A stretch of 64,000 nt of DNA from Escherichia phage heid, in sequence record MN850577.1. One strand, 5' to 3'. The position numbers and the translations under genes are program-made. Each line of letters starts with the position of its first letter. The stretch's first letter is position 1. Positions 1 to 15,391 of this stretch are shown here, piece after piece. The notes beneath the pieces were generated by a model. The model saw only the letters and a list, made by a program, of their open reading frames with translations. It had not been told where the DNA came from and made no database searches.

Positions 1-1228
1 ATCTTTACAGACCTTATCTCACAAGGTCTAACACGGTACTAACAAGGTATCTTATAAGCCTGTTATTACCTGTATTTTTAAAAGACTGTCTAGGTAATTA
101 TTCAGAATCTTAAAATTTTTATAAAATAGGACTATCAAGTCATTTTTTAGGGTCTTTGAAGGAACTGAAAAATATCTGTAGAAGATGTATATCTGCTTGG
201 TAGCCCTTAACAACTCCCTTACAAGTACTTTGCAAAATTTTAAAATATCCTTAACAATTTCTTAACAACTCTCTCAAGCTCTTAACAACCCTTCAAAGGT
301 CTTAACAGATTCTTAACAGAACTAACAAGGCTGTAACAGTTTTCTAGGGATTGGTAACAATACCAATTAACAAGTGCTGAATAGGCTTTACAGAATCTTA
401 ACAGATGACTAACAAGAGCTAACAAGTTAATTTTAAAGAGTTATTTTGTTAAGATAATTAACAAGTCTCTAACAAGTGTTTAATCTTTTTAACAAGCTAT
501 TAACATGGTCACTATCTCTTGGTCTATAGTTCCCTTTCCCTCTTAGTGATTCTTTAAACATACCTCTTAAAAGCTCTCTATAGCTCTTTATAAGCTCTTT
601 TAAGTCTCTTCCTAGTAGTTACACCCCAACTATACAGAAAGCTCTTTATAGGGCTTTACAGGAGCTTTTAAGGCTATGTCAAAGGCTCTTACAAGGTTTT
701 TACATGGTCTTAACAGAGATTTAACAAGGGGCTAACAAGTTGCTAACAAGTGCCTTAAAAGCATAACTATGTAGGGTTTGTTAAGAAATTGTTAAGAAAT
801 TGTTAAGAAAATGTTAAGGGGGCTAGCATTTACGTAACTTTTAAGCTACTTTATAGCCCCTATAACATACTTTTAAGACACTAACAAGCCCTTTTTAGAT
901 ATTCACAAGATAGCTAACGAGATGATAAAGCTTACACCCTTATAAGATTCTTTTAAGGCTGTAGGAAGCTTTATAAAGAGCTTTTAAGGGTGAGTTAATG
1001 CAATCCCTTAAGTTAGGTTGATAAGGCTGTTATAGAGCTTTATAGAGCGTTTAAACGGTTGCCCTTCCCTTTCGGGTTATGGGCTTTTATTTAAGTTGAT
1101 TTGATAAGAGATTATAGAGTAGACTATAGAGTTATTGCTTTTAAGGTCTGGTAAGATTCTATCGAATCAGTAGGGTAGATTCTGGAAAGGAAAGGAAAGG
1201 GATTGTATAGAGGTTATTACATAGACGT
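1..1228. repeat. Non-coding A+T-rich region packed with short repeats: over 25 copies of CTTAACA(A/G)/CTAACAAG, often phased at about 11 bp, a tandem GTTAAGAAATT x3 at 779-818, and recurring AGCTCTTTATA and CTTTTAAGG motifs
   Basis: Read directly from sequence; no ORF of 60 aa or more on either strand; lies just 3' of the early-array terminator. Confidence 0.6.
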
Positions 1229-1282
1229 AAAAAAAGCCCCTATGAGAAGGAGCTTTGCAGGTATCTGGGGCTATTTAGCCCC
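1229..1282 (-). terminator. Probable intrinsic terminator ending the early gene array
   Basis: GC-rich inverted repeats (AGCCCC 1235-1240, GGGGCT 1267-1272, AGCCCC 1277-1282) followed on the minus strand by a U7 run (plus A-run 1229-1235), just after the stop of ORF 1293-1541. Confidence 0.45.
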
Positions 1283-1292
1283 GTTGCGTCGA

Positions 1293-1541
1293 TTAGTTGT
1301 AACCTTGTTTATTGTAGTACAGTGAGATAATCAAGTCACCCCAGTAATGATAGTGATGCTCGTCGTTTAATGCCTCTTTTACAGCGTCTTTCCAGAAGTC
1401 ATCAGTAGGGTTATAATCTGGGATAACTTGCTTGATAACTGTCTTCACTAATGAAAAGCATTCATCAGTTCCACCGATATCAAATTTAACGTCCAGAGTA
1501 TAACAGCCATAAGCATTGACAGTTGCGCGGATAGTTGCCAT
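1293..1541 (-). CDS. Hypothetical small early protein (82 aa)
   Basis: ORF with AGGAG Shine-Dalgarno 8 nt upstream and conserved family A promoter/UTR element. Confidence 0.55.
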   Translation of the reverse strand: MATIRATVNAYGCYTLDVKFDIGGTDECFSLVKTVIKQVIPDYNPTDDFWKDAVKEALNDEHHYHYWGDLIISLYYNKQGYN

Positions 1542-1636
1542 TTTTTGAATCTCCTAGTTTAAGGACTTTACTTAGTGGGGAAGGTCATTCCCTCCCCGTT
1601 GATTAGTAATTTACTGCATGTTGGCGTATGTTGCAA
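1542..1636 (-). promoter_or_regulatory. Family A early promoter/5' UTR element: -35 TTGCAA (1631-1636), 17-bp spacer, -10 TAAATT (1608-1613), stem-loop 1577-1597, SD AGGAG
   Basis: Seven copies of a conserved ~70-bp element; the -10 contains the stop codon of the upstream gene; hairpin with conserved core and covarying stem. Confidence 0.55.
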
Positions 1637-1874
1637 GCCTTTTTTCGTTGTATTTTGTCAGAATCTCACAAGATAAAACATCATATTTTGTAACCGCTTT
1701 GCCTTTGTCGAGGTCAAAGAATCCGAACGCTTTACCATCTTTGAATCCGACAACTTCGTAAGATTCTTTGATGATTTCACCATTGAACAAATCACTTTCG
1801 ATACGGTGAAATAATGCTACATCTTCTTTGTCGGTTGCAATTTGTAAAAGTGTGGTTAATTCTACGTTTTCCAT
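1611..1874 (-). CDS. Hypothetical small early protein (87 aa)
   Basis: ORF preceded by family A element. Confidence 0.55.
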   Translation of the reverse strand: MENVELTTLLQIATDKEDVALFHRIESDLFNGEIIKESYEVVGFKDGKAFGFFDLDKGKAVTKYDVLSCEILTKYNEKRLATYANMQ

Positions 1875-1963
1875 CTTGATGCCCCTAGTTTAAGGATTTT
1901 ATTGAGTGGGGGAGGTCATCCCCCGTTAATGAGTAATTTACAGATTTTTGATTGTCTCGTCAA
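1875..1963 (-). promoter_or_regulatory. Family A early promoter/5' UTR element: -35 TTGACG (1958-1963), 17 bp, -10 TAAATT (1935-1940), stem-loop 1908-1924
   Basis: Conserved element; the -10 overlaps the upstream stop codon; stem GGGGGA/TCCCCC. Confidence 0.55.
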
Positions 1964-2468
1964 TGTCTTTTTCAATATCTTTTAAAGTTTTTTCTAAGTT
2001 CTTGATATTGAAAGATAAACCCTCTCCCAATGTTTTGCTGTAACCACTAGGGCGCAAGTCATGCAGTTCGATTTCTTCCACTTCGAAGAGACTAACCAAC
2101 TCACCGCTTACACTGTAAGCCATTGAAACAGTATTTACAGGGGCTTTATAGAACTTGTTTAAGGACTTGATAGAACGCTCATAAGCCATTTTATAACCGT
2201 TTAAAAGGTCTTTAACGTGGTTGCGAACGTTTTTACACTCATCTAAGTAAATCCCTAAGAATAGCGGTAATAACTCTGCTACAGCTTGCATAAAGTGAGA
2301 GACTACAACGGTTGCAACATTACGACGATGTACATAATAAGCCCCATTTTCTGATTTAGTGATGGTTGCAAAGTGTACCCCATTGCAGCGAAATTCGTAG
2401 GTATCTTTAACAGGCTTAGCCATTACAGCATTTGAACGAATGTAGTTGATAGCTTGAAATTTGTTCAT
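1938..2468 (-). CDS. Hypothetical early protein (about 176 aa; ATG at 2468 preferred over the track's longer start)
   Basis: Conserved SD plus ATG context shared with the other early genes. Confidence 0.5.
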   Translation of the reverse strand: MNKFQAINYIRSNAVMAKPVKDTYEFRCNGVHFATITKSENGAYYVHRRNVATVVVSHFMQAVAELLPLFLGIYLDECKNVRNHVKDLLNGYKMAYERSIKSLNKFYKAPVNTVSMAYSVSGELVSLFEVEEIELHDLRPSGYSKTLGEGLSFNIKNLEKTLKDIEKDIDETIKNL

Positions 2469-2560
2469 TTTTGAATCTCCTAGTTTAAGGACTTTATTTA
2501 GTGGGGAGGTCATTACCTCCCGTTGATTAGTAATTTACTTGTTTTGATATCTGATTGCAA
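2469..2560 (-). promoter_or_regulatory. Family A early promoter/5' UTR element: -35 TTGCAA (2555-2560), 17 bp, -10 TAAATT (2532-2537), stem-loop 2503-2521
   Basis: Conserved element; stem variant GGAGGT/ACCTCC. Confidence 0.5.
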
Positions 2561-2628
2561 GCAATTTTTTAAGTTTATCTATAAAGAATCTTTTAAGTTA
2601 ATCCCTTTTAGATAAACCCCCTCGAACA

Positions 2629-2657
2629 AATCTACCAATGTCAAGGGGCGTTGTCAA
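2629..2657 (-). promoter_or_regulatory. Additional sigma70-like promoter: TTGACA, 17 bp, TAGATT
   Basis: Hexamers and spacing read from sequence in the 150-bp non-coding gap 2541-2689. Confidence 0.4.
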
Positions 2658-2689
2658 TACTTTTTTGAAAGTTTTTTGTAAGTTATTGA

Positions 2690-3031
2690 TTAACTGATGA
2701 ATATTTTTTCAGGTTTTACATAGCTGATACGCTGACTTTTTAGCAGGTCATCCCAGATTAACGCGGCGATATGGGCATAACCGGATTCACGTAAAAGCTT
2801 CATTGTTTTACTTCTCGTTTCAAAACGGCTTGCGTAGTACTCACTATTTAAAACCGTTTTATTCCCTTCGTTATCTACATGGATAATCTGCATCACTTGA
2901 AAGGGGCTTGTGTCCTCGCCTTTGTTCCACTGTTCAAAGTATTTTAGGCACTGCATAGGTGACATCTTATCACTTACTTGAGTTGACCAAGATGAATTTT
3001 CTTTATCGGTAATTACGGTTACATAAGCCAT
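2690..3031 (-). CDS. Hypothetical early protein (113 aa)
   Basis: ORF with family A element upstream. Confidence 0.5.
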   Translation of the reverse strand: MAYVTVITDKENSSWSTQVSDKMSPMQCLKYFEQWNKGEDTSPFQVMQIIHVDNEGNKTVLNSEYYASRFETRSKTMKLLRESGYAHIAALIWDDLLKSQRISYVKPEKIFIS

Positions 3032-3125
3032 TTTTGAATCTCCTAGTTTAAGGATTGTACTTAGTGGGGAAGGTCATTCCCTCCCCGTTGATTGACAATT
3101 TACAGATTTTTATCAGGCTTGTCTA
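3032..3125 (-). promoter_or_regulatory. Family A early promoter/5' UTR element: -35 TAGACA (3120-3125), 17 bp, -10 TAAATT (3097-3102), stem-loop 3066-3086
   Basis: Conserved element; the -35 overlaps the stop codon of ORF 3123-3356. Confidence 0.5.
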
Positions 3126-3356
3126 GTCTTTTTCAATGATAATTTCATACTGACCATCTACGCTGTCAAAATAGATACCGTCTTCATCTTCTGTCTTAAA
3201 GTAACATTGTATATCATCACTAGCGGGATAGTCTTGTCTTGCTATCTGACAGACCTGAACAGCATTTTCTTTACTTCCTGTAAACTCCTCAAGCCCTTTA
3301 AAATCACATGAATGACCATTACAAATAGAAAGGATAAGATAAACGGTTGTAAGCAT
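3123..3356 (-). CDS. Small protein with hydrophobic N-terminus and cysteines (77 aa), possibly secreted or a lipoprotein
   Basis: N-terminal LILSICNG resembles a signal/lipobox; SD AAGAGG. Confidence 0.4.
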   Translation of the reverse strand: MLTTVYLILSICNGHSCDFKGLEEFTGSKENAVQVCQIARQDYPASDDIQCYFKTEDEDGIYFDSVDGQYEIIIEKD

Positions 3357-3369
3357 GATTTAAGCCTCT

Positions 3370-3390
3370 TAAAAGCCCCTGTGAGGGGCT
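3370..3390 (-). terminator. Intrinsic terminator-like hairpin
   Basis: AGCCCC-TGTGA-GGGGCT followed on the minus strand by UUUU, between ORFs 3423-3965 and 3123-3356. Confidence 0.4.
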
Positions 3391-3422
3391 AATCAGTGTT
3401 TATAAGGTGATTGCATAGGTTT

Positions 3423-3965
3423 TTAGAAAAAGCTCTTTAAATCTCTCTCTGTGATGTTTCCCGCTAGTGTATCCATGATGTCACAAAAAACCTGAATACT
3501 ATCCGACTGTTGAATACTTTTAGCAAGAAGCTCCAGAGACTCATCAAGATAATTTAAATTTGGGTTATCCAATGAAGGAAGACAAAAAGGCGAAAACATC
3601 GCATTAAACTCGGTTACGTAAACCTTTTTAATCCAATTTAAATCGAAGTATTCTGTAAAACTTGCTACGCCAGACATATTATCACAAGAATAATCATCAT
3701 TCAGGTCATCCTCTGGGATATCAAGTTCTAAGATAACAATATTTTGGGTTTTCATCTGGAAAGCGGCCGTAATAGTGGCATTACCTAACGCTTGCTGGAT
3801 GCCTTCGGCTGTTATCTCTTTCTCATCGTCGCCATAGATTTTATTTTCTGGATACACGTAAAAATTGCCGTCCATGTCCGAACAATTCCATGCACCTGAT
3901 GGCTTGTCACCGTTATTAATCAGGTTGAGGAAATTTTCTTGAGTAGTACCGTGAAAGCATTTCAT
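3423..3965 (-). CDS. Acidic hypothetical early protein (180 aa)
   Basis: ORF; strongly acidic composition; N-terminal HGT and YVY motifs of unknown meaning. Confidence 0.5.
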   Translation of the reverse strand: MKCFHGTTQENFLNLINNGDKPSGAWNCSDMDGNFYVYPENKIYGDDEKEITAEGIQQALGNATITAAFQMKTQNIVILELDIPEDDLNDDYSCDNMSGVASFTEYFDLNWIKKVYVTEFNAMFSPFCLPSLDNPNLNYLDESLELLAKSIQQSDSIQVFCDIMDTLAGNITERDLKSFF

Positions 3966-4055
3966 TTTTGAATCTCCAGTTTAGGATTTAGTGGTAAAGC
4001 TCTTTATCTGGGGCTTACTTTATCGAACTATAAGCCCCTTGTAAAGTACTTTATT
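3966..4055 (-). promoter_or_regulatory. Family B intergenic element: 16-bp near-palindrome TGTAAAGTACTTTAT containing -35 TTTACA and the upstream stop codon, GC hairpin 4010-4038, -10 TAAAGT, SD
   Basis: Four near-identical copies of about 90 bp; -35/-10 spacing 17-18 bp. Confidence 0.45.
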
Positions 4056-4254
4056 TGTTATTTTTTACTACTTTTAAAACCGCACGATAGCCTAAGCAAT
4101 AGGAATCACCGAAGAGCGACCGACCCATGAAGGAGTCCTCTGTAATATCTTTCGCCGTGACGGTTTTTTCTACGCCGTGAAAGAGAACTACATCACCGAC
4201 TTTAATATCTTTGATGTGTGTAGTTTCAATGGTTAAACCGTTAATAATAGCCAT
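4051..4254 (-). CDS. Hypothetical small early protein (67 aa)
   Basis: ORF with family A element upstream. Confidence 0.5.
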   Translation of the reverse strand: MAIINGLTIETTHIKDIKVGDVVLFHGVEKTVTAKDITEDSFMGRSLFGDSYCLGYRAVLKVVKNNK

Positions 4255-4346
4255 TTTTGAATCTCCAGTTTAGGACTTTATTTAGTGGGGAAGGTCATTC
4301 CCGCCCCGTTGATGTGTAATTTAATCTATCTGAAAACCAATGTCAA
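4255..4346 (-). promoter_or_regulatory. Family A early promoter/5' UTR element: -35 TTGACA (4341-4346), 17 bp, -10 TAAATT (4318-4323), stem-loop 4287-4307; A-tract upstream of -35
   Basis: Hexamers and spacing read from sequence; T12 run at 4347-4360. Confidence 0.55.
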
Positions 4347-4360
4347 CAATTTTTTTTTTT

Positions 4361-4765
4361 TTAGAGTTCTGCATAAATTGCATCACAGATACCACGAAAA
4401 TCATGATTTGTCAAATTACGTTGTAACCAAGTGGCGAAAAAGTCAGCGATTGCAAAGTTAGCGTCATACTCGACAGATAGCCACACTTTAACAGCAAACC
4501 GAAACATTTTCAAATCAAGCTCTTTATTCATTACCTTAGATTTGCCTAACATGTCGGACATTTCATATTGTGCACCGTCTAGCGTGATACCTGCTGCAAC
4601 GTCAGCCAATGAGTTTTTTACGTTTTCAACGTCTAAGATAACGCTTTGAATCTTCCCAATAATGTTGTGCAATGTTTCGTCCGGTGCTGATGACGTAATA
4701 ACATTAATCCGGTTAACGGTCAAACGTGCTTTTAAGATTGATAACTCGCGATTATTAATAGCCAT
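4361..4765 (-). CDS. Hypothetical early protein (about 134 aa; ATG at 4765, the track start is a TTG)
   Basis: SD GGAGAA 7 nt before ATG. Confidence 0.5.
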   Translation of the reverse strand: MAINNRELSILKARLTVNRINVITSSAPDETLHNIIGKIQSVILDVENVKNSLADVAAGITLDGAQYEMSDMLGKSKVMNKELDLKMFRFAVKVWLSVEYDANFAIADFFATWLQRNLTNHDFRGICDAIYAEL

Positions 4766-4856
4766 TTTTAAGTTCTCCAATTTAGGATTTAGTGGTAAAG
4801 CTCTTTATCTGGGGCTTACTTTATCGAACTATAAGCCCCTTGTAAAGTACTTTATA
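4766..4856 (-). promoter_or_regulatory. Family B intergenic element (palindrome 4841-4856 containing stop codon 4852-4854, hairpin 4811-4839)
   Basis: Conserved repeat copy. Confidence 0.45.
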
Positions 4857-5124
4857 CTAAATGCAGCTTTTTACCTTTTACTATGATGTAACTCGATGCG
4901 CTATTGCTTTGCACATCCTGATAAATTCTGCGCAAACGGCCTTCGTAGTATACTTTCCAACTGGTTGGAATCTTTTTCCCGTATCCTGTAGCAGTTTTTT
5001 GTAGTCCTGCAAGTTGCCAATCTAAGATATGTTGTTCGGCTTGTAAATCCTCGAAGTGCATTACACCGTTCACATAGTGACGAAGGGTTACGTTTAAGGT
5101 GCGACCGTTGTTAGTAGTATACAT
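4852..5124 (-). CDS. Hypothetical small early protein (90 aa)
   Basis: ORF with family A element upstream. Confidence 0.5.
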   Translation of the reverse strand: MYTTNNGRTLNVTLRHYVNGVMHFEDLQAEQHILDWQLAGLQKTATGYGKKIPTSWKVYYEGRLRRIYQDVQSNSASSYIIVKGKKLHLV

Positions 5125-5215
5125 TTTGAATCTCCTAGTTTAAGGACTTTGTTTAGTGGGGAGGTCATTACCTCCCGTTGATTAGTAATTTACTTGTTTT
5201 AAAAACCAAAATCAA
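5125..5215 (-). promoter_or_regulatory. Family A early promoter/5' UTR element: -35 TTGATT (5210-5215), 17 bp, -10 TAAATT (5187-5192), stem-loop 5157-5176
   Basis: Conserved element; the -35 overlaps the upstream stop codon. Confidence 0.5.
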
Positions 5216-5544
5216 GAGAAATTTTTTCGTTTGCTCAATTCTTGAACAATTACAGCGTAGTAGTCTTTTAAGTCACTGACATTTAAAGCATTTATCAGAG
5301 AATTATAATCATCGACTAACTGAAAATCATCTTTGAAAATGTCGCTGATTTGATAAGTTTTTGATTGAAATCTGAAGCTCATTTCTAACCGTTTTATTTG
5401 TTCATCACTTAAACGCTCCAGAAAGCTCATTACAAGGCTATTATTGACCTGTTGCGTGATTGCCTTATTTGCTAGATTATAGGCTTTATATGCCTTATAT
5501 AGCGCGAAAATGGCAATGATTGCAGTGATACCAGTCATTAACAT
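5212..5544 (-). CDS. Small membrane-anchored protein (110 aa)
   Basis: N-terminal hydrophobic segment MLMTGITAIIAIFALY; SD AGAGGAAA. Confidence 0.5.
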   Translation of the reverse strand: MLMTGITAIIAIFALYKAYKAYNLANKAITQQVNNSLVMSFLERLSDEQIKRLEMSFRFQSKTYQISDIFKDDFQLVDDYNSLINALNVSDLKDYYAVIVQELSKRKNFS

Positions 5545-5834
5545 GGTGTTTCCTCTTTACGTGATACTTTGCCATTTACAGTTATCTCATAAGAATCTAG
5601 TAAGTCACTTTTAGATTTTACTGGACTTTTAAAAGTATCATCATAAATATTTACTTGCAATACAGGTTTTTTATACTCCCTGCAACTATTCCATAAACAA
5701 ATCACTACACGACGGCCTTTTATTTTACCGTGCAACCATTCCATAACATCATGATTATTTCTTGATGTCTCGATAAAATCAATTTTGTTGAGTAACTTGC
5801 TTAGATTTTCACGAACTTTATTGGATAATTTCAT
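5538..5834 (-). CDS. Hypothetical small early protein (98 aa)
   Basis: ORF with conserved SD context. Confidence 0.5.
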   Translation of the reverse strand: MKLSNKVRENLSKLLNKIDFIETSRNNHDVMEWLHGKIKGRRVVICLWNSCREYKKPVLQVNIYDDTFKSPVKSKSDLLDSYEITVNGKVSRKEETPC

Positions 5835-5926
5835 TTTTGAGTCTCCTAGTTTAAGGGTTAATTTGATAAAGCTCTTTATCTGGGGCTTAAGATATCAACT
5901 TTTAAGCCCCTTGTAAAGTACTTTAT
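5835..5926 (-). promoter_or_regulatory. Family B intergenic element (hairpin 5882-5910 with stem GGGGCTTAA/TTAAGCCCC and a different loop; palindrome 5911-5926)
   Basis: Stem conserved while the loop differs from the other copies. Confidence 0.45.
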
Positions 5927-6183
5927 CAGATTAAATTGCCAGTTAATGATAAGTGCATTTTGTAACCTTGTTTAGTGAATACGTTCACTTTACCGAGTGT
6001 TTTTACACCTTTAAAAAGGTTATTTGAACTGCGTTTTAAGGTTAAATGTTTATCAGCCTTCACGCCCCACCTTACATTAGATTGTTTTCCGTTGTCAACC
6101 ACTTTCCCGCATAACTTTTTAGCCATAACGCGAGCGTCATCACGAGTTTTTGCAGCAATTACAACGTTTTTGATAATAGCCAT
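5926..6183 (-). CDS. Basic hypothetical small protein (about 85 aa; ATG at 6183)
   Basis: ORF; same SD context as 4361-4765. Confidence 0.5.
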   Translation of the reverse strand: MAIIKNVVIAAKTRDDARVMAKKLCGKVVDNGKQSNVRWGVKADKHLTLKRSSNNLFKGVKTLGKVNVFTKQGYKMHLSLTGNLI

Positions 6184-6273
6184 TTTTAAGTTCTCCAATT
6201 TAGGATTTAGTGGTAAAGCTCTTTATCTGGGGCTTACTTTATCGAACTATAAGCCCCTTGTAAAGTACTTTAT
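6184..6273 (-). promoter_or_regulatory. Family B intergenic element (hairpin 6229-6257, palindrome 6258-6273 containing stop codon 6270-6272)
   Basis: Conserved repeat copy. Confidence 0.45.
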
Positions 6274-6650
6274 TTAATTTTGAAGATAGTTACGTAACCA
6301 TCACTACCGATTATTTGAGACACTCCAGCTTTTTCTACTTGATAGCCCATATTTTCAAGATGATAAACAGCATCATCATAACCATATGCGCCACCCTGAT
6401 AACGTCTCTTATCGCATTTTATCAGGTTTTTACCACGTCCCGCAAGTGCATGCAAAATGGCTTTTTCACTTGAAAGAGTACCATCTAGCATTGTCGCCGT
6501 GTAATGGTTGATTTTATTCCCGTTAATATCATACTTGAAATTGAACGAGTGAACAACAATAACGTTACCTTTAAAATTCTCATCAAGTGACTTCTCCAGT
6601 ACGCTACGAAAGTTGTCTTTGTTGATGAATTTAGGTGCACGATATTTCAT
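6270..6650 (-). CDS. Hypothetical early protein (126 aa), first gene of the early array
   Basis: ORF with family A element and a strong promoter upstream. Confidence 0.5.
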   Translation of the reverse strand: MKYRAPKFINKDNFRSVLEKSLDENFKGNVIVVHSFNFKYDINGNKINHYTATMLDGTLSSEKAILHALAGRGKNLIKCDKRRYQGGAYGYDDAVYHLENMGYQVEKAGVSQIIGSDGYVTIFKIK

Positions 6651-6745
6651 TTTTGAATCTCCTAGTTTAAGGACTTTACTTAGTGGGGAGCGTCATTCCC
6701 CCCCCCGTTGATGCAAATACTAGATAACCCCGTTCAAAGAGTCAA
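6651..6745 (-). promoter_or_regulatory. Family A variant: -35 TTGACT (6740-6745), 17 bp, -10 TAGTAT (6717-6722), stem-loop 6685-6706, SD AGGAG
   Basis: Best sigma70 match in the array. Confidence 0.55.
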
Positions 6746-6866
6746 TAAAAATTTTAAAAATATTTTTGGCAAAACTGTAATGAAACGGGTGCGCACGACT
6801 ACCACAAAACAGAACGCAAATCAAGAATTATTTTTCAATCCGCTACAAATTTTTCTCTTGACTTTT

Positions 6867-6902
6867 GGGGAGAGGGGGAGTAAGAGGGGGAGAGGGGTTG
6901 GG
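6867..6902 (+). other. G-tract cluster (GGGG AGA GGGGG AGTAAGA GGGGG AGA GGGG TT GGG), a canonical G-quadruplex-forming motif
   Basis: Five G-runs of 3 or more with loops of 2-7 nt, in an otherwise AT-rich genome. Confidence 0.5.
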
Positions 6903-6922
6903 CTGGCTGTCTATAAAAACCT

Positions 6923-7100
6923 ACCTGCACAATTCTAAAATGATTTTTCTTGCCCGACCTGAGCGGGGTCTGCACGTTTTGAAAATGAAAAAGCTCTTTG
7001 GAGATTACCTGCACAGTTTGAAAATGAATTTTCTCTTTGGAGTTCAAAATTTTCTCTACAGATTTCTCTACAGAACTCTACCTGCACAATTCTGAAATGA
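6923..7100. repeat. Four direct repeats of about 21 bp, (T)ACCTGCACA(R)TT(Y)TGAAAATGA, at 6923, 6970, 7007 and 7080; two copies extend to a 38-bp tandem unit ending CTCTTTGGAG
   Basis: Read directly; non-coding region between the macro-like gene and the early-array promoter. Confidence 0.6.
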
Positions 7101-7173
7101 AAAAGCCCTCCTTACCTGAAAAATTTACCAGATAAGAAAGGCTTAGGCTATTGTGAATATTCTACAGAGTTTC

Positions 7174-7959
7174 TTAGTTCTTTGCGTCTAAGAAGGTAAC
7201 TTCTGGTGAAGAGAAAACTGTCTCGATATCCTCATCAGTTCTTGCATAGATATAAGTATCTGCATCACTGCCAAATGTTACTGCAATCCTGTGATTGCTC
7301 TTCGACAGGTGGGTAACTAGAGCGTTACTCAGAGACATCTTTTCAACCGGAGGGTTACTTTGATGTATCTTACCTTTTCTTCGTCTGAAGAGGGTAACTG
7401 CGTTATCTGTGAACACTGCTACACCTGCAAAGTATTCTGGTTCACAGTAGTTCTTCCAACCTGAGCGTAACTTGTGGTACATCTCTCCTTCGTAGACATA
7501 AAGATACACATCTACACTCTTCATCACCTGATTAATGATAACTGTGACGGCTTGAGGGTCTAGCCCACCGATACCTGCACCAATCATAGGTAAACCAACC
7601 TTCTTCAACTGGTTGACTTCACAGTATCTGTTAAGCTGTTTCAAAGATGACTCTAAAGCACTGTATCGGGCATCTTTACCAGTCTTAAGCTGAGTGTAAA
7701 GGTTAGCTATACGACCTTGTTTTAAACGTGCTACAGAGAAATTACCCAGTAAATTTTCACAGGGTTTGTGTCCTATACCACCTGCATATAGATAAACTTC
7801 TGTATCGGTCTCATATGCTTTTGGGTAAAGTTTAGAAATCTTGTCAGCGATACCTGCACCCATTAAATTCATACAGTTGCAACCGTGACCGATGATGTCA
7901 AACTTACCTTTATCAAATGCGGCAAAGATATCACCATTGATTATTTTTACAATACCCAT
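7174..7959 (-). CDS. Macro-domain-like protein (261 aa), tentative ADP-ribose binding/hydrolase fold, with a C-terminal extension of unknown function
   Basis: Motifs GHGCNCMNLMGAGIA and LPMIGAGIGG resemble the macro-domain N-x-x-N/G-rich loops; call from motif memory only. Confidence 0.4.
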   Translation of the reverse strand: MGIVKIINGDIFAAFDKGKFDIIGHGCNCMNLMGAGIADKISKLYPKAYETDTEVYLYAGGIGHKPCENLLGNFSVARLKQGRIANLYTQLKTGKDARYSALESSLKQLNRYCEVNQLKKVGLPMIGAGIGGLDPQAVTVIINQVMKSVDVYLYVYEGEMYHKLRSGWKNYCEPEYFAGVAVFTDNAVTLFRRRKGKIHQSNPPVEKMSLSNALVTHLSKSNHRIAVTFGSDADTYIYARTDEDIETVFSSPEVTFLDAKN

Positions 7960-8159
7960 TTAACATCTCTCCCAAGATTCTTTATCTTCTGAAGGTTTTA
8001 CACGTTGCCCCTCATGGTCTACCCAGATACATCCACAACCTTCACAGATTACTGGCATTGCATAGCCAGCTTTAAAGTCATCTTCAGTGATAAGACCTTT
8101 TAAGTCACCTGTATCACGTCCAAACATTTCTATAGAACAGTCTTTGCAGAAGTCAGCCA
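7960..8159 (-). CDS. Small Cys-rich protein (about 66 aa), putative zinc-binding
   Basis: CxxC and CEGCGC motifs; ATG overlaps the stop of the upstream ORF. Confidence 0.4.
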
Positions 8160-8380
8160 TTGATAATTGCCTCTTGAATGATGATACCTTTACCACAACG
8201 GCTTTTAAAGTCTTCCAATGGTTGGGAGATGAAGCCACGCAAGCAATCACTAAATACTAAGTTTTTCCTGTAGGCTATCACATCGTTTGCTGTAAACGGG
8301 ATGACTTCATTTCTTCCAATGAATACTGCTGACCGGATGAGTTTCCGTGTCTTTTTATCTCTGGCTAGAATTACTCTCAT
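8153..8380 (-). CDS. Hypothetical protein (75 aa)
   Basis: ORF in operon context. Confidence 0.4.
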   Translation of the reverse strand: MRVILARDKKTRKLIRSAVFIGRNEVIPFTANDVIAYRKNLVFSDCLRGFISQPLEDFKSRCGKGIIIQEAIING

Positions 8381-8681
8381 AATTTACCTTCTCAGTTAGC
8401 TCATATAAATCAACATGCTCAATACTATCAATGTTGATATCAATCTTTTTGAAGCGTTCTATCACTTCATTGTCAGTCATCCATATCAGACACCAATGAT
8501 TCTGGATGGATTCTTCAAGAAGTTCAACACAATCTTTAAAAGTTTTTGTATCACTTCTTGTGCCTACTACTGCGATTGTTCCATATAGCCACTTACCATT
8601 GCCATAAGATACTTGTGCTACGCCAACTTCTTTACCTTTCTCGTAGTAAACGGCTACAAAGTCTCTTCCATTAATCTGCAT
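8355..8681 (-). CDS. Hypothetical protein (108 aa)
   Basis: ORF. Confidence 0.4.
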   Translation of the reverse strand: MQINGRDFVAVYYEKGKEVGVAQVSYGNGKWLYGTIAVVGTRSDTKTFKDCVELLEESIQNHWCLIWMTDNEVIERFKKIDINIDSIEHVDLYELTEKVNYESNSSQR

Positions 8682-8683
8682 AG

Positions 8684-8956
8684 TTACTTCCTCGTTTTGA
8701 GAACTGCTAAGATTTCTTTAGAGTCTGGTAAGAACCATGTGTAGTGATTCTCTTTGATTTCTGGATGAGTGTCAACCTTTATTTTGCACTCTTTACCAAC
8801 ATGCTTAAGCTGTGCTGTGATACCTTGCATAAAGATGTGACACATTACATTATCCATAATCGTAGGTAAGAAATCAATCCTCATGTAAGTATCTTTCGGT
8901 CTCGGTAGAAGTAAGTAACCTTCTGTGTAGAAAGTTTCATCATTACTTTGTGTCAT
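8684..8956 (-). CDS. Hypothetical protein (90 aa)
   Basis: ORF. Confidence 0.4.
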   Translation of the reverse strand: MTQSNDETFYTEGYLLLPRPKDTYMRIDFLPTIMDNVMCHIFMQGITAQLKHVGKECKIKVDTHPEIKENHYTWFLPDSKEILAVLKTRK

Positions 8957-9222
8957 TACTGCTTATTCCCTAATAAAATCATATCAATAAGGTTATTAGC
9001 TTTGATTGTGCACTGGTAAAATCCATCACGATAGAACTCAAGGGCTGCTGCCACATCACTACCAGTATTACCTTTGATAGTAAATCTTGAATCTTCTTGA
9101 GTATACTTATCACTCTCACTTACTTGGGAGTTTTTGAATGTACTGTTCACTTTGTTCGTTGAACACCCTGACATAATTATCAGTAACACAAACATTATAA
9201 AACTCTGGCTTAGTTTTTTCAT
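8956..9222 (-). CDS. Outer-membrane lipoprotein, o-spanin-like (88 aa)
   Basis: Signal peptide with lipobox LIIMSGC; starts inside the 3' end of the preceding membrane-protein gene in another frame. Confidence 0.45.
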   Translation of the reverse strand: MKKLSQSFIMFVLLIIMSGCSTNKVNSTFKNSQVSESDKYTQEDSRFTIKGNTGSDVAAALEFYRDGFYQCTIKANNLIDMILLGNKQ

Positions 9223-9463
9223 ACGTTAGTACCTCTTTTGTGTGCTTATTCTTAGCAAGCACATCTTTCAAATCATTTTTGTAATTGGTGCTGAGTGTGG
9301 CTAAACCTTCCTGATAAGCATCTTTGGCAACACTTATTAGTTTCTCATTATTTAGCTCAGTTTCAGCAACTTGGTAGTCTCTGTAAGAGTACCCTCCCCA
9401 GACACCTGTCCCAACTAAGAAAACAATTATGAAAGTAGCTTGACAGAACTCTTTAAATGTCAT
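9116..9463 (-). CDS. Type II membrane protein, i-spanin-like (115 aa)
   Basis: N-terminal TM segment FIIVFLVGTGVWGG, coiled-coil-like remainder, overlapping lipoprotein gene. Confidence 0.45.
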   Translation of the reverse strand: MTFKEFCQATFIIVFLVGTGVWGGYSYRDYQVAETELNNEKLISVAKDAYQEGLATLSTNYKNDLKDVLAKNKHTKEVLTYEKTKPEFYNVCVTDNYVRVFNEQSEQYIQKLPSK

Positions 9464-9482
9464 TTAACAATCTCCTGAAATG

Positions 9483-9503
9483 AAAAAGGCTCCCGAAGGA
9501 GCC
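9483..9503 (-). terminator. Intrinsic terminator
   Basis: GGCTCC-CGAA-GGAGCC hairpin followed on the minus strand by a U-run. Confidence 0.6.
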
Positions 9504-9515
9504 TGTATCTTAACC

Positions 9516-9995
9516 TTAACCGAGGACTTTAGCAAGGATATTTGCAGCCATCGAAGAAGCTTTTGCAGCAGCAACTACGCCAGCCTTGACAGTGCTATCC
9601 TTAATAGCAGATACCGTTGCAGCATCAGTAAAGAGATAAGTGATTGTTTTGGAACCACTTGTAAAGGAAAGCATAAGAGTAGTTTCCAGATTGAAAGAGC
9701 GATATGGAGCACCTTCTTTAACGATACCTTCAGCACCTAACTCTGAAGCCTTACCCATATCATAGATAGTCATCAGATTTTCTTTGTGTGCAGTCGTTGA
9801 ACCAGCACCTTTTACGTGCTTCTTAACGTTTAACAATGCACGATATTCACGAATGCTGCCATCAGCTTTTACATTAACAGCACGGAAAATTTTACCTTCA
9901 AAGTTACCTTGAATCATTTTACGAACTACTTCAGATTTGTTTGCCGTATCGTCCAGTGCTACCGTAATGATATTGTTCATAAGTTCTTCTCTCAA
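9516..9995 (-). CDS. Hypothetical protein (159 aa)
   Basis: ORF. Confidence 0.4.
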   Translation of the reverse strand: MREELMNNIITVALDDTANKSEVVRKMIQGNFEGKIFRAVNVKADGSIREYRALLNVKKHVKGAGSTTAHKENLMTIYDMGKASELGAEGIVKEGAPYRSFNLETTLMLSFTSGSKTITYLFTDAATVSAIKDSTVKAGVVAAAKASSMAANILAKVLG

Positions 9996-10687
9996 TGTTT
10001 AACTAACATGGTTTTAATGTGTGGAAGGATTCTGTTTACCTTCTGAACATTCTTCTCTGTATCTTCTATAAAGCATACTATATTAAAGTAAGGAAGAATG
10101 CAAGACTGAATCATCCTCACTTTCAAACTTTCTGCACTTATAGAGTTAGTTCCAAAACCACGCATAAAAAGCAAGTAATCATGCTCTATATTGTGCCTTA
10201 AAAACATCTCAGTAGGTATTCTCTGAGATTCACCTCTTGCTGTCAAGAGTCCAACTGCTGCATGATTTGCAATTGCATCAATAATGTTGAAAACATATGT
10301 TGGTTTTGCTCTTACAGAATCAAGAAGATTAGTGTACTGTGAGAATGACCCATCAGTCAATTCCGTTGAGCAATCTTCATGATTAAAATTTGTAAGAACA
10401 CCATCAATATCTGCTAAGATGAGGTTACCTTTTTCTACAAGGTCTTTATTGACTATCACTAAACTATCACGCCTTACACCTATAGTTTGTCCAGTCTCTT
10501 TGTCCACAACGTTCACAATGGGTTCTGATGTGTGGAACTCTTCAAGTGAACATACAACCTCTCTTGCAGTGTCTTCAAAATCTCTGCACTGTTCTGGAGT
10601 CCATACACAGGAATCAAGACCTAACTCATGAGGATGCAAGTCATAAGCGTGGCACAGGACTTCATCAGACTTTTTTAATTTTTTCAT
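9992..10687 (-). CDS. HAD-superfamily phosphatase-like protein (231 aa)
   Basis: Motif I LILADIDGVLT (DxDG) and C-terminal FIEDTEKN. Confidence 0.4.
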   Translation of the reverse strand: MKKLKKSDEVLCHAYDLHPHELGLDSCVWTPEQCRDFEDTAREVVCSLEEFHTSEPIVNVVDKETGQTIGVRRDSLVIVNKDLVEKGNLILADIDGVLTNFNHEDCSTELTDGSFSQYTNLLDSVRAKPTYVFNIIDAIANHAAVGLLTARGESQRIPTEMFLRHNIEHDYLLFMRGFGTNSISAESLKVRMIQSCILPYFNIVCFIEDTEKNVQKVNRILPHIKTMLVKH

Positions 10688-11213
10688 GGTTTACCTTAGA
10701 AATGTTTGTTGCAAATTCACATTGAGCAATAACTTTCATGTTGTTATAGACATCTTGAGAGTATTTCTTAGCTTTAGGGATTCTGTACGAATACCCAGCA
10801 TTATATGACGCTAAAACTTTTTGTAAAGTCTTCTTTGACTTTGGCTGACCATGCACCTTTGTCCAAAACTCAAGTTCTTTGTGCGTTTCCTTTGCAGCAT
10901 AGTCAAAGTCTTTTAAGAGTTTCTTTTTAGCCACATTAGGACTAATTTTGTTACGCTTTACAACAGTCTTCAAGTGATTCTGGAAAATACCATAATCGTG
11001 TGTCTTTTTATTCTCTACCTTCAGACCTAACTCTGACTCTTGTAAGGCTATAGCAGCTAGAGTGATACCCCAACCTTTACCCATATTATTCTCACCATAC
11101 TGGTAAGCTTTTAACATGTTTACTTTTTGACTAATTGATAGCTCTGGGCAGTCAACTGCATAAGATAAGTGTGCTGTAAACATTAAGCACAAACCTAGAA
11201 TCAATTTCTTCAT
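10665..11213 (-). CDS. Lytic transglycosylase (SLT domain) with signal peptide, candidate endolysin
   Basis: Signal peptide MKKLILGLCLMFTAHLSYA; SLT motifs IALQESELG, YGIFQN, SYNAGYS. Confidence 0.55.
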   Translation of the reverse strand: MKKLILGLCLMFTAHLSYAVDCPELSISQKVNMLKAYQYGENNMGKGWGITLAAIALQESELGLKVENKKTHDYGIFQNHLKTVVKRNKISPNVAKKKLLKDFDYAAKETHKELEFWTKVHGQPKSKKTLQKVLASYNAGYSYRIPKAKKYSQDVYNNMKVIAQCEFATNISKVNHEKIKKV

Positions 11214-11273
11214 TGGTTCTCCTGTTTAGTTTATCGTGACAACAATTATACAGTACTCTGCACAAAATACAAA

Positions 11274-11300
11274 TAAAAAAGGCCGCCGAAGCAGCCTTTT
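11274..11300 (-). terminator. Intrinsic terminator after the rIIB-like gene
   Basis: Minus-strand RNA hairpin GGCUGC-UUCG-GCGGCC (one G-U pair) followed by U6. Confidence 0.55.
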
Positions 11301-11313
11301 AAGAAATTACTTA

Positions 11314-12423
11314 TTAGATTTCACGTTTACGCTGAGAGATGAGTTCACCAGCAGTACCGACGATGACATGCAAAGCTTCAGTCTTACCGTCCCATGCTTT
11401 CAGCACTTTGCGTTGGTTATCAACGATTGCTGCAACTTCATAACGAGAGGAACGCATCTTCATATCGTTGTAATCAGTTGGGACAGATACAACATCTCGT
11501 GGATGGACACGAACCTTCAGGATTGTATCACCTGAGAAGCAACGGACATAATCCCAAGCACCAACATGAAGACCCTGGGAGCAAGTCACATTACGGTTAT
11601 TATCAACCATCCAACGTGGCATTTCTACAATGTTACCCAAGTCATTAGGTACTCTGTATGTGTGGGAGTCAACCAGCTTGCCTTCACGAGTAGAGACTTT
11701 CTTCCAACCAATGATGTAGCCTTCTTCATCAATCTCAACATCAAGGTGAGATACGAATCCCCAAAGTTGTTCTACAGAATCTTTAGATGGATTTTCCATC
11801 AGTTTTTCGAAGAACATTACAAGGCGTTCAAAACCTTTATCTCCAGTCTTCATCATGTGAAGAATACGGTCAACCAGAGTAGAACGCATCTCAACAGCAC
11901 CGTAGAATAGTTTGTCACCTTTGATTGTGATAGCACCCTGAGTGAAGTTTTCGATAGACTTACGAATGTTCATTAGTTCGAAAGCTTTCTTATACTCACC
12001 GGATACAACAGCCATCACGATTTCTTTGTAGTTTGGATGGGTAGATTCAACGATTTCAGAATCTGCACCGAAAGTCATGATAACAGAGTCGCCAGTAATC
12101 ATGTACTCAATCTGGTTGCCATTCTGCATAGCTTCGTGCAGTTTATTTACTGGAGCTTTCTGTACAGCGTCTTTAACGACCTTTTCAACTGGTTTGCCAG
12201 CTTTCTTTTTAAAAGTCTTAGCAACTTGCTTCAAAGTCTTCGTAGCTGGTGTAGAAGTCACCTTCTTCTTCCCTTTTAAGGTTGCTTCATGACGCTCTAC
12301 AGCACGACCAACTGAACGGGTTGAAGTGTTAAATTTCTGTGCAATAGCTGTTTTGGTCAGCTTACCTTCTTTAACCAGTTTGTAAATTTCTGCGTCAATC
12401 TGTGCTTTAGTTTTAGTAGTCAT
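11314..12423 (-). CDS. rIIB: rIIB-like protein (369 aa)
   Basis: Position immediately downstream of the rIIA-like gene; N-terminal HTH-like segment; similarity judged from memory. Confidence 0.4.
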   Translation of the reverse strand: MTTKTKAQIDAEIYKLVKEGKLTKTAIAQKFNTSTRSVGRAVERHEATLKGKKKVTSTPATKTLKQVAKTFKKKAGKPVEKVVKDAVQKAPVNKLHEAMQNGNQIEYMITGDSVIMTFGADSEIVESTHPNYKEIVMAVVSGEYKKAFELMNIRKSIENFTQGAITIKGDKLFYGAVEMRSTLVDRILHMMKTGDKGFERLVMFFEKLMENPSKDSVEQLWGFVSHLDVEIDEEGYIIGWKKVSTREGKLVDSHTYRVPNDLGNIVEMPRWMVDNNRNVTCSQGLHVGAWDYVRCFSGDTILKVRVHPRDVVSVPTDYNDMKMRSSRYEVAAIVDNQRKVLKAWDGKTEALHVIVGTAGELISQRKREI

Positions 12424-12467
12424 CTTATTACTCTCTCTTGTTAGTTAATCAATCAATTTGTGAGGCT

Positions 12468-12497
12468 ATTCTAAGGGGTTTTGAAGCCCCTTGTCAA
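12468..12497 (-). promoter_or_regulatory. Sigma70-like promoter TTGACA, 18 bp, TAGAAT with a GC palindrome in the spacer
   Basis: Hexamers read from sequence between the rIIA-like and rIIB-like genes. Confidence 0.4.
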
Positions 12498-12502
12498 ACA
12501 CT

Positions 12503-14869: not shown

Positions 14870-15055
14870 AATACTTTCCTCTCAGTTTACTGTTAAATTA
14901 CTTATTAAACATTTTACCAGAACCACCACACATAGGGCAACATCCTGCCCTTATGTACCCCTCTCCATTACAGTAGTCACATTTTTTGTGCTCTGCAAAG
15001 TACTTGCAAAGGAGGTAGACAAATACTGCTACACAACCAAGTGACAGTAAAATTT

Positions 15056-15391
15056 CTATCCAATATGCTTGCATGACTCACCTCTCATATTCTTGTAAAG
15101 GATAAAGCTTCTGTCATGGACGATACTTGTAGACACTGCAAAGTTACTTTCAAGCATCTGTTTGTTTGGATTGTAGAAGCTTTCTTTAAACTCGTCAAGT
15201 GCAAATTGGTGATTATCTGGAAGACCTTTTACACAGACCTTTATTGTAATTGCTGCTGCGACCTTGCCAGTCAGTTCTTCTTTAGCTGCTACTAAAATTT
15301 TGTTAAGAAACTTATGGCCATCTTCAGGCTTCTTGATGTTCTCCCAACGTTCTTCTAAGACAATGTTGATGTTCATCTCTTTGATTTTCAT
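15056..15391 (-). CDS. Hypothetical protein (111 aa)
   Basis: ORF. Confidence 0.4.
   Translation of the reverse strand: MKIKEMNINIVLEERWENIKKPEDGHKFLNKILVAAKEELTGKVAAAITIKVCVKGLPDNHQFALDEFKESFYNPNKQMLESNFAVSTSIVHDRSFILYKNMRGESCKHIG

Follow-up and report, generated by a model that had tools for sequence, protein, structure and literature searches.

The 64,000-nt stretch of DNA analyzed here (Escherichia phage heid, record MN850577.1; hereafter the window) comes from a Felixounavirus (Felix O1-like) phage with 99.4% identity to Escherichia phage fjerdesal. An early-gene module of 13 ORFan genes occupies its minus strand at 1293-6745, and across the Ounavirinae the size of this module ranges from 9 to 19 genes. 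Pfam gave no match for the 10 module proteins scanned, and all 13 proteins match PHROGs families, solely ones of unknown function. An intrinsic terminator upstream insulates the module from the phosphatase operon and a second closes it 3' of the last gene (Table 1). Each gene had been predicted to possess its own promoter within a conserved element; this holds for 11 of the 13, which are preceded by seven elements of one family (A) and four of another (B), but not for the remaining two. The 110-aa gene at 5212-5544 is translationally coupled, and the gene at 3123-3356 is preceded by a hairpin alone. Between the genes for 180 aa and 77 aa lies a hairpin followed by TTTT; it has no promoter motif, and in phage wV8 the homologous site carries the annotation of a rho-independent terminator. 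The core motifs of the elements occur 4-6 times in the window against 0.00-0.03 expected by chance, and no element copy was found in the window beyond 1539-6745.

Table 1. Regulatory features of the module, in order of transcription; all lie on the minus strand.
Feature	Span	-35	-10	Hairpin	ATG	Gene or remark
Terminator	7103..7144					upstream of module; identical to Felix O1 t13
A7	6648..6745	TTGACT 6745-6740	TAGTAT 6722-6717	6706-6685	6650	SD 6662-6659; 126-aa ORFan 6270-6650; first promoter of module
B4	6181..6273	TTTACA 6264-6259	TAAAGT 6241-6236	long 6273-6212; upper stem-loop 6257-6229	6183	85-aa ORFan
B3	5832..5926	5917-5912	TATCTT 5894-5889, TGn before	long 5926-5865	5834	98-aa ORFan, then coupled 110-aa gene
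A6	5122..5215	TTGATT 5215-5210	TAAATT 5192-5187	GGGAGGT/ACCTCCC 5176-5158	5124	
B2	4763..4855	4846-4841	4823-4818	long 4855-4794	4765	
A5	4252..4346	TTGACA 4346-4341	TAAATT 4323-4318	4307-4287	4254	
B1	3963..4054	4045-4040	4022-4017	long 4054-3993	3965	
U-tract hairpin	3371..3390			AGCCCCT-CAC-AGGGGCT		between 180-aa and 77-aa genes
A4	3029..3125	TAGACA 3125-3120	3102-3097	3086-3066	3031	
Third promoter-in-hairpin	2611..2657	TTGACA 2657-2652	TAGATT 2634-2629	CCCCTTGA/TCGAGGGG 2648-2618		single copy
A3	2466..2560	TTGCAA 2560-2555	2537-2532	2521-2503	2468	176-aa ORFan
A2	1872..1963	TTGACG 1963-1958	TAAATT 1940-1935	GGGGGA/TCCCCC 1924-1908	1874	
A1	1539..1636	TTGCAA 1636-1631	TAAATT 1613-1608	1597-1577	1541	last gene, 1293-1541
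Terminator	1233..1256					closes module, 3' of last gene

All seven family A copies of the original prediction are present and have a common layout, in which a -35 hexamer, a 17-bp spacer (7/7) and a -10 hexamer (TAAATT in six copies, TAGTAT in one) are followed by a GC hairpin and an AGGAG Shine-Dalgarno (SD) sequence. The SD does not lie 8 nt before the ATG throughout, as had been stated, but at 7-9 nt, and the proposed ATGACC core, while present in the window copies, is genus-specific and partly inside the stem. For comparison, 64 A and 53 B copies (117 in total) were collected from 10 genomes of four Ounavirinae genera. In 48 of 53 unique copies, the A hairpin begins 11 nt past the -10 and 3 nt past the first A of CAAC. 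All 36 unique A hairpins combine a GGG/CCC base and covarying inner pairs with this fixed start position, and they fold with a mean dG of -12.5 kcal/mol (z -4.4).

The four family B elements were likewise recovered. They had been described as a 16-bp near-palindrome with an 8-9 bp GC hairpin; both exist, but the palindrome is perfect over 12 nt (TAAAGTACTTTA) and forms part of a long hairpin, and the GC hairpin is only the top of this ~60-nt structure. The whole element folds as a three-helix hairpin (6 + 5 + 9 bp), interrupted by two internal loops, with energies of -21.6 to -27.1 kcal/mol and z of -5.2 to -6.8, a copy from an Erwinia phage included. A second palindrome (TAAAGAGCTTTA) lies 3' of the GC hairpin; the loop of B3 is unlike that of the other B copies. 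The -10 is enclosed by the upper stem-loop, in its loop and 3' arm, and this upper stem-loop ends at about -1. The 45-nt leader of the predicted B transcript is unstructured (dG -2.7 kcal/mol, z -0.06), and 30/30 aligned B copies from four genera share an unchanged GATAAAG at about +2 to +8. A further promoter of this kind is present once, upstream of A3 with no ORF in between; here TGn precedes the -10, which sits in the hairpin loop, and TTTATCT follows.

The claim that stems vary while still pairing was borne out by compensatory changes across the 10 genomes. In a set of 62 unique B upper stems, pairing at pairs 1-9 is 94-100%, with the alternatives GC/UA, UG/CG/UA and UA/AU, and falls to 29-47% beyond pair 9. 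Sequences from related phages are not independent, and some covariation counts represent only one or two events, e.g., the outer-helix change from GC to UA. In the B stems G·U wobbles outnumber A·C mismatches by 49 cells to 1, which places the selection on the sense-strand RNA, and in both families folding is better for the sense than for the antisense strand.

The elements were also held to contain real sigma70-type promoters, and comparison upholds this as a prediction: the -35, the 17-bp spacing and three -10 positions (1, 2 and 6) stay invariant throughout the 117 copies, whereas the spacer and inner -10 bases vary. Every A copy (64/64) has a -35 of TTGnnn or TAGACA, the 17-bp spacer, an upstream A-tract and a -10 of TAAATT, TAAAGT, TAGTAT or TAATAT; -10 positions 1, 2 and 6 are among the columns already invariant in the seven window copies, and the -35 hexamers sit in unrelated, non-homologous coding sequence. 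Each of the 53 B copies combines TTTACA with a 17-bp spacer and a TAnnnT -10 whose inner three bases vary, and 25 of them carry TG at -15/-14. The match to consensus is mediocre (8-10 of 12), and a consensus scan of the region gave 27 sites against 18 ± 4.1 expected, without significant enrichment. A literature search returned neither mapped start sites nor transcriptomes for any Felix O1-like phage, and the start sites used here are those predicted from the motifs. The extreme compaction, with stop codons inside promoter parts, is genuine in A1, A2, A4, A6 and all four B copies. The upstream TAA forms the first three bases of the -10 in A1 and A2, TAG and TGA stops lie inside the -35 of A4 (TAGACA) and A6 (TTGATT), respectively, and in 4/4 B copies a TAA or TGA falls within the 5' half of the palindrome or directly adjoins it.

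With a probability of about 0.7, the region 1233-7144 is best read as a Felix O1-like phage's hyperplastic module of early genes, in which the elements are ~95-nt regulatory cassettes of the PeSL (promoter-early stem-loop) type. PeSLs are known from the T4-type phages RB49, phi1, PST and nt-1 (Arbiol et al., 2010, PMC2839356; Comeau et al., 2014, PMC4122927). They share with the present elements an AT-rich tract, a sigma70-like promoter, a GGGG...CCCC stem-loop placed after the -10, between -35 and -10 or over the -10, and an SD, as well as a location ahead of ORFans in a hyperplastic region where indels of close relatives break within elements. However, the present phage belongs to another subfamily (Ounavirinae) and its elements have no sequence similarity to PeSLs. 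They form only two dominant, highly homogeneous families in a single module, whereas PeSLs number ~50 copies in several regions; their hexamers are further from consensus, and the B hairpin tops a 60-nt three-helix structure. No U-tract follows any A or B hairpin and none is called terminator-like, so that the terminator role of the PeSL stem-loop is not simply transferable. Terminator activity, promoter strength and mini-circles have been measured for PeSLs. The identification as the Felix O1-group counterpart of PeSLs was missed by the original prediction, as was the role of the elements as recombination break points.

Four parts would make up each cassette: an A-rich tract similar to an UP element, a promoter recognized by host sigma70 RNA polymerase (-35, 17 bp, -10 TAnnnT), a hairpin of a G-run and a C-run under selection as sense-strand RNA, and a conserved leader whose ribosome-binding site is strong. 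The A hairpin begins ~3 nt past the predicted start, and each A transcript is therefore expected to carry a 5'-terminal hairpin, which most likely slows 5'-end-dependent decay. The hairpins that enclose the -10 and end at about -1, namely those of family B, the promoter at 2657-2611 and two further families in the Erwinia phage, would form solely in read-through RNA from the upstream gene. There they may act as attenuators, processing sites or 3' protective structures, making the cassette transcriptionally semi-autonomous.

The originally proposed 5'-terminal stabilizing or processing stem-loop can be extended to every hairpin, each on the transcript of its own promoter. Hairpins of this kind, e.g., in the ompA leader, protect and stabilize E. 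coli mRNAs. The geometry of family A is consistent with the idea, as its hairpin lies 2-4 nt from the predicted 5' end and keeps its start position despite varying sequence. Family B does not fit: its upper stem sits 3' of the -35 and ends at about -1, and the transcript would begin 3' of the stem with an unstructured leader. The transcript of its own promoter therefore lacks the hairpin, which can form in read-through RNA alone, and a role as 5' stabilizer is thereby excluded. Since the same geometry recurs at 2657-2611 and in two more families of the Erwinia phage phiEa21-4, a single 5'-end function cannot explain all hairpins, and the proposal in its general form is doubtful. An action on DNA, with the hairpins and palindromes as operators for a dimeric regulator of phage or host (TAAAGnnCTTTA flanking the B promoter) or as targets of a recombinase or cruciform-binding protein, is improbable. 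The 12-nt palindrome TAAAGnnCTTTA does occur twice per B copy (9 window matches, 0.22 expected), with related half-sites in the non-coding region 1-1200, the invariance of GATAAAG would suit a DNA site, and the PeSL authors speculated on protein binding to GGGG...CCCC. Yet the G·U excess is meaningless for recognition of duplex DNA, the stem sequence covaries rather than being conserved, and mismatches in the local palindrome (11/14, 58/61) are compensated in the long-hairpin model (11/61: GC 23, UA 4); the data do not favor the near-palindrome as a stand-alone protein site, and point to its being part of the long hairpin.

Slightly less probable again is a middle class of promoters that need a phage-made factor reading a conserved -10-proximal block, e.g., GTAAATTACTAATCAACGG. 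Hexamers off consensus (TAAATT; TTGCAA or TTGATT) and the unusual conservation of the 12 nt past the -10 speak for such a factor, as does the RT-PCR peak of Felix O1 ORFs 14, 17, 19 and 23 at 25 min (PMC3185647), from which it follows that module timing is not uniformly early. Against this, module ORFs 16, 20, 21 and 22 peak 5 min after infection (PMC3185647), the Felix O1 authors detected neither a sigma factor nor a polymerase modifier, and all copies retain a canonical -35, 17-bp spacing, TAnnnT and the A-tract; in Moogle and SUSP1, with a -10 of TAAAGT, the downstream block is altered while the sigma70-critical bases are kept. A single operon transcribed from 6745-6717 alone, with the elements as inter-cistronic processing or translation signals devoid of promoter activity, is very unlikely. 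Canonical terminators do lie only at the two module ends, save for the weak U-tract hairpin at 3390-3371, and conservation within the element is highest in leader and SD, but this leaves the invariance of promoter positions, the maintenance of -35 hexamers in unrelated coding sequences and the TGn motifs unexplained.

Among other known systems, the early genes of T7 are separated by RNase III sites between cistrons and transcribed from three shared upstream promoters, none of which lies inside a hairpin. The B structures resemble these sites as long, internally looped inter-cistronic hairpins of ~20 bp on read-through RNA of an early cluster, and putative RNase III cleavage would give the upstream message a 3' hairpin; they differ in having a promoter inside the hairpin and share no sequence similarity. 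In Felix O1, 57-bp and 39-bp direct repeats were listed and transcription regulation was stated to be unknown (PMC3185647), and the wV8 GenBank record holds DR_1 to DR_9. Of the Felix O1 repeats, the 57-bp one corresponds to the core of family B and the 39-bp one to the promoter region of family A, but these records treat the elements solely as repeats, annotate two hairpins as opposite-strand terminators and propose no promoter, RNA-structure or recombination role.

The cassettes of the PeSL-type reading are probably also recombination points for gene gain and loss, as already described for T4-type phages. The 60-95 bp that they have in common would provide the homology by which whole cassettes are inserted, deleted and swapped between and within genomes. 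The PeSL authors themselves drew the comparison with integron cassettes and phage “morons,” which are likewise small accessory genes in mobile units with their own or met expression signals; unlike integrons, the present system has no integrase and no attC-type site, and exchange is explained by cassette homology. Between close relatives (I14.1, HK3, REP10, adrianh, REP5, and Felix O1), 5/5 distinct cassette indels have both ends inside elements. Variants of hairpin and leader are swapped among paralogous positions, and phage Michonne has one empty cassette.

The module lies on the minus strand, as do all the genes concerned, and consists of 13 small genes between two intrinsic terminators. 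Across 1200-7200 the window is 99.4% identical to Escherichia phage fjerdesal (Felixounavirus, subfamily Ounavirinae), and ~250 related phage records match this region. Felix O1, wV8, Moogle, Citrobacter phage Michonne, phiSUSP1 and Erwinia phage phiEa21-4 also have the module, in each case after the macro-domain phosphatase gene. Across genera it comprises 9 to 19 genes, which identifies it as a hyperplastic region. All 13 proteins match PHROGs, solely in families of unknown function, and a Pfam scan of 10 of the 13 returned no matches.

The seven elements of family A and the four of family B, all of them promoter-and-hairpin cassettes, were found where the original prediction had placed them, and the -35, -10, hairpin, Shine-Dalgarno (SD) and ATG coordinates were computed exactly for each. 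The core motifs give 4-6 matches against 0.00-0.03 expected from shuffles, with no further occurrence in the 64-kb window. Stop codons were said to sit inside promoter parts, and this is borne out at A1, A2, A4, A6 and all four B elements: the upstream TAA forms bases 1-3 of the -10 at A1 and A2, TAG and TGA lie within the -35 of A4 and A6, respectively, and TAA or TGA falls in or adjoins the 5' palindrome half of every B copy. The claim that each early gene has its own promoter element stands for 11 of the 13 genes; gene 5212-5544 overlaps its upstream neighbor and has no element, and gene 3123-3356 is preceded by a hairpin only. The distance from SD to ATG, given as 8 nt, is in fact 7-9 nt.

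Promoter-hairpin elements and borders of the early module
Feature	Coordinates	Strand	Description
Intrinsic terminator, upstream border of module	7144-7103	minus	Felix O1 terminator t13
Family A elements A1-A7	from 1539 (A1) up to 6745 (A7)	minus	promoter, then hairpin
Family B element B4	6273-6181	minus	-10 inside hairpin
Family B element B3	5926-5832	minus	-10 inside hairpin
Family B element B2	4855-4763	minus	-10 inside hairpin
Family B element B1	4054-3963	minus	-10 inside hairpin
Third promoter-in-hairpin, single copy	2657-2611	minus	TTGACA, 17 bp, TGn, TAGATT
Intrinsic terminator, downstream border of module	1256-1233	minus	terminator scan

Do these elements act as promoters? A consensus promoter scan is unconvincing alone (27 sites vs 18 ± 4.1 expected, not a significant enrichment); several A copies fall below its threshold and those with TTGCAA or TTGATT are missed. 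The case consequently rests on comparing copies gathered from the window and nine further genomes, spanning four genera: 64 belong to A and 55 to B, with 53 correctly anchored copies used for the B promoter statistics. The -35, the 17-bp spacing and TAnnnT are kept in 117/117 copies (10 genomes), with A-tracts upstream of the -35. The 64 A copies carry TTGACA, TTGCAA, TTGACG, TTGACT, TTGATT or TAGACA, a spacer of exactly 17 bp, and a -10 of TAAATT (n = 39), TAAAGT (n = 13), TAGTAT (n = 7) or TAATAT (n = 5). Homology among them begins only at about -18, and the -35 hexamers sit in the C-terminal coding sequence of differing, unrelated upstream genes at a constant distance of 17 bp. All 53 B copies have TTTACA, 17 bp and TAnnnT, their -10 sequences including TAAAGT, TAAGAT, TATCTT, TAGTAT and TAATCT, and 25 carry TG at -15/-14. 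Positions 1, 2 and 6 of the -10 are also invariant among the seven window A copies; conservation of these positions, with the inner ones free, is the recognition signature of sigma70. From these comparisons we strongly infer that both families would function as promoters, and the promoter interpretation of the original prediction appears well supported. By RT-PCR in Felix O1, expression of module ORFs 16, 20, 21 and 22 peaked 5 min after infection and that of ORFs 14, 17, 19 and 23 at 25 min; a literature search found no start-site or transcriptome data for Felix O1-type phages. The single-copy promoter at 2657-2611 has its -10 in the loop of hairpin CCCCTTGA/TCGAGGGG, followed by TTTATCT. A3 follows it with no intervening ORF, which seems to give the 176-aa gene two tandem promoters.

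The hairpins of both families fold better on the sense than on the antisense strand. A pattern scan of viral contigs for B stems matched only Ounavirinae-sized contigs, mostly of 82-94 kb. The distinct upper stems of these copies and the loci collected before came to 62 in all, in which G·U cells number 49 and A·C cells 1. Wobble asymmetry and better sense folding together point to selection on the sense single strand, most simply RNA, and not on duplex symmetry; the 49:1 ratio is direct sequence evidence for hairpins acting as sense-strand RNA, a point that the PeSL (promoter-early stem-loop) papers on T4-type phages did not establish. The wV8 record (NC_012749, 7000-15500) annotates two hairpins as rho-independent terminators and places them on the opposite strand from the genes; the asymmetry argues against hairpin function on that strand. 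No U-tract follows the hairpins of either family, A being followed by ACTAA and the B upper stem by AGATAAAG, and a terminator scan of the minus strand listed only the two module borders, calling no A or B hairpin terminator-like. Rfam 15 covariance models run over 1-9000 (E ≤ 1) returned two sub-threshold chance matches only, one of them MIR781 over B3 (26.6 bits vs a gathering score of 88).

The A hairpin folds in 53/53 unique sequences (mean dG -12.5 kcal/mol, mean z -4.4) and begins exactly 3 nt past the first A of CAAC in 48 of them. Only the GGG/CCC base is common to all 36 distinct hairpins: GC, AU, CG and GU occur at pair 4, six pair types at pair 5, and the loop spans 4-8 nt. A transcription start 7-9 nt downstream of the -10, as predicted, would leave 2-4 nt between the 5' end of the transcript and the hairpin. 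A degenerate operator was considered at "TAAAGTCCTTAA" and rejected, as this sequence varies between copies and is missing in Moogle and SUSP1. The loop of the A3 hairpin contains an in-frame ATG (ATGACC), annotated in fjerdesal as the start of the gene at window 1938-2513 (576 nt); relatives have the same gene as 531 nt from an SD-preceded ATG at 2468, and the fjerdesal call is probably over-extended. Every A and B leader (e.g., 1551-1566, 4771-4783) also contains a conserved mini-hairpin, UCCU-UAAACU-AGGA, which half-sequesters the SD. It is thermodynamically very weak, a variant (UCC-UAAACU-GGA) has lost both partners of one base pair, and it could serve translational control or be a nuclease target site.

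Pairing in the family B upper stem is 93.4% vs 86.9% in shuffles, none of 500 reaching as high, and at most 61% with slid partners. Across the 62 distinct stems, pairs 1-9 are paired in 94-100% and those beyond pair 9 in 29-47%, with alternatives of GC/UA at pair 3, UG/CG/UA at pair 5, UA/AU at pairs 7 and 8, and five types at pair 9. The 5' arm directly follows the -35, the loop and 3' arm take in the -10, and ~1 nt separates the end of the stem from the predicted start, the A of CAGATAAAG. RNA initiated at the B promoter therefore does not include the hairpin, and the 45-nt leader of this RNA is unstructured (dG -2.7 kcal/mol, z -0.06). The 5' stabilizing stem-loop of the original prediction is thus plausible for family A, whose geometry is compatible with a hairpin at the 5' terminus, and is contradicted by the geometry of family B. 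An alternative upstream B promoter (TAAAGT within the palindrome), which would make the hairpin 5'-terminal as in A, was rejected: the four window copies have no -35 at 16-18 bp upstream, and the first T of TAAAGT is present in just 22 of 30 aligned copies. Layouts with the -10 in the hairpin recur at 2657-2611 and in two further families of phiEa21-4. The latter precede early genes at 9650-14510, alongside family B; one has TTGCAA or TTTACA, then GGGGTTATGG...ATAACCCC, the other TTGACA with TAAAAT in the loop of GAGGGG/CCCCTC, and both end in a conserved (C)ATCAAC or GTCGAAAC start region.

What, then, is the wider B structure? The palindrome described in the original prediction is present as a 12-nt motif, TAAAGTACTTTA, and has a partner, TAAAGAGCTTTA, 3' of the hairpin. 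Together with the upper stem the two fold into one hairpin of 60 nt, with 6 + 5 + 9 bp and two internal loops (dG -21.6 to -27.1 kcal/mol, z -5.2 to -6.8), a fold shared by the copy in the Erwinia phage. Two local operators (TAAAGnnCTTTA) flanking the promoter would be the other reading, and TAAAGnnCTTTA is real as a motif; however, pair counts slightly favor the nested arrangement over two local palindromes, and the wobble asymmetry likewise speaks for one long RNA hairpin. The changes at columns 11 and 61 are mismatches in the local palindromes but pair with each other as GC (23) or UA (4), and the inner helix CUUUA/UAAAG is invariant and hence uninformative. Since the changes in the outer helix probably represent one or two events, the operators are retained as a minor rival. 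An additional perfect palindrome at 46144 is within a coding region and probably due to chance.

The long B hairpin encloses the promoter and is absent from its own transcript, so the 60-nt structure would exist only in RNA read through from the upstream gene. There it could act in attenuation, processing or 3'-end protection. Its dimensions recall the T7 early RNase III sites, which have about two turns of double-stranded RNA and an internal loop; the two internal loops of the B fold are kept in the Erwinia phage. A bolder proposal, which we regard as unlikely, is that family B puts the same 60 nt to dual use, in DNA as a sigma70 promoter, in read-through RNA as a three-helix hairpin. RNase III-like cleavage of the hairpin, or a polymerase block set by it exactly at the next promoter, would leave the cassettes insulated and self-contained, and hairpin-bearing cassettes would be mobile in an integron-like manner, possibly via circular intermediates. 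If true, phages beyond the T4-like group would share this as a general principle in the design of their accessory-gene regions.

Alignment of the module with those of I14.1, HK3, REP10, adrianh, REP5 and Felix O1 revealed five distinct cassette gain/loss events (at A7, at B3, B4-B3, A2-A1 and A5-A4). Both ends lie within A or B elements in 5/5, and the alignments on either side of each event share 60-110 nt of element sequence. At orthologous positions, hairpin and leader variants differ between phages of ~90% identity, and the same variants recur at paralogous ones, a single variant occupying three positions in adrianh. In Michonne (7085-7255) two B elements stand in tandem and enclose no gene, the first one's ATG being fused directly to CTTTACA of the second; this "empty cassette" is likely the footprint of a cassette deletion.

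In T4-type phages, the cassettes known as promoter-early stem-loop elements (PeSLs) measure ~100 nt. Each combines an AT-rich tract, a sigma70-like promoter and an SD with a GGGG...CCCC stem-loop, which takes one of five placements with respect to the promoter; PeSLs cluster ahead of ORFans in hyperplastic regions and bring about modular shuffling (PMC2839356, PMC4122927). Features of the class also include a stem-loop that is an effective terminator/attenuator, a promoter that is strong in vivo and cassette mini-circles that arise by recombination between flanking elements. Every defining feature of PeSLs at the level of sequence recurs here: a promoter preceded by an AT-rich region; a stem-loop placed after the -10 in A, and between -35 and +1, over the -10, in B and at 2657-2611; an intergenic position from upstream stop to downstream SD and ATG, before ORFans; and break points within the elements between close relatives. 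Judged by these features, the A and B elements are PeSL-type cassettes in Ounavirinae. The Felix O1 genome paper noted them only as 57-bp and 39-bp direct repeats and stated the regulation of transcription as unknown, and the wV8 record (7000-15500) annotates them just as repeat regions DR_1 to DR_9. A full-text search with the element sequences matched the Felix O1 paper solely, and a literature search for prior descriptions found only its repeat list; the wV8 paper does not mention promoters, nor the 2014 PeSL paper (PMC4122927) Felix O1-type phages.

Added here are the sense-strand wobble asymmetry, the fixed position of the hairpins relative to the predicted start and the 60-nt B hairpin that embeds a promoter. 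The elements probably explain how Felix O1-type phages, widely used in Salmonella and E. coli typing, biocontrol and therapy, transcribe their first genes, a point left open by the Felix O1 genome paper. They also explain differences in module gene content among otherwise ~90%-identical isolates. The concept of regulatory cassettes as recombination linkers is extended from T4-type phages to an unrelated myovirus subfamily, supporting PeSL-type cassettes as a recurrent solution for shuffling accessory/anti-host genes. As compact, naturally insulated promoter-plus-RBS parts, the cassettes could serve phage engineering.

Downstream of the module, window 1-1200 (1.2 kb, non-coding, 33% GC) is kept in relatives at 83-86% identity and carries 22 copies of TAACA(A/G) on the plus strand, mostly ~10-11 bp apart or multiples thereof, three inverted copies of TTGTTAAGAAA at ~775-815 and several ATAAAGAGCT-like half-sites similar to the family B palindrome. 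It looks like a phased iteron array, with an origin, a packaging site or an array bound by protein as candidate roles. At the other end, the non-coding leader from the terminator to the first early promoter (6746-7140) repeats TACCTGCAC(A) 3-4 times with similar flanks (repeat families D5 and D7), and at ~6850-6900 its sense strand has a C-rich, G-poor tract of ~45 nt resembling a Rho utilization site.
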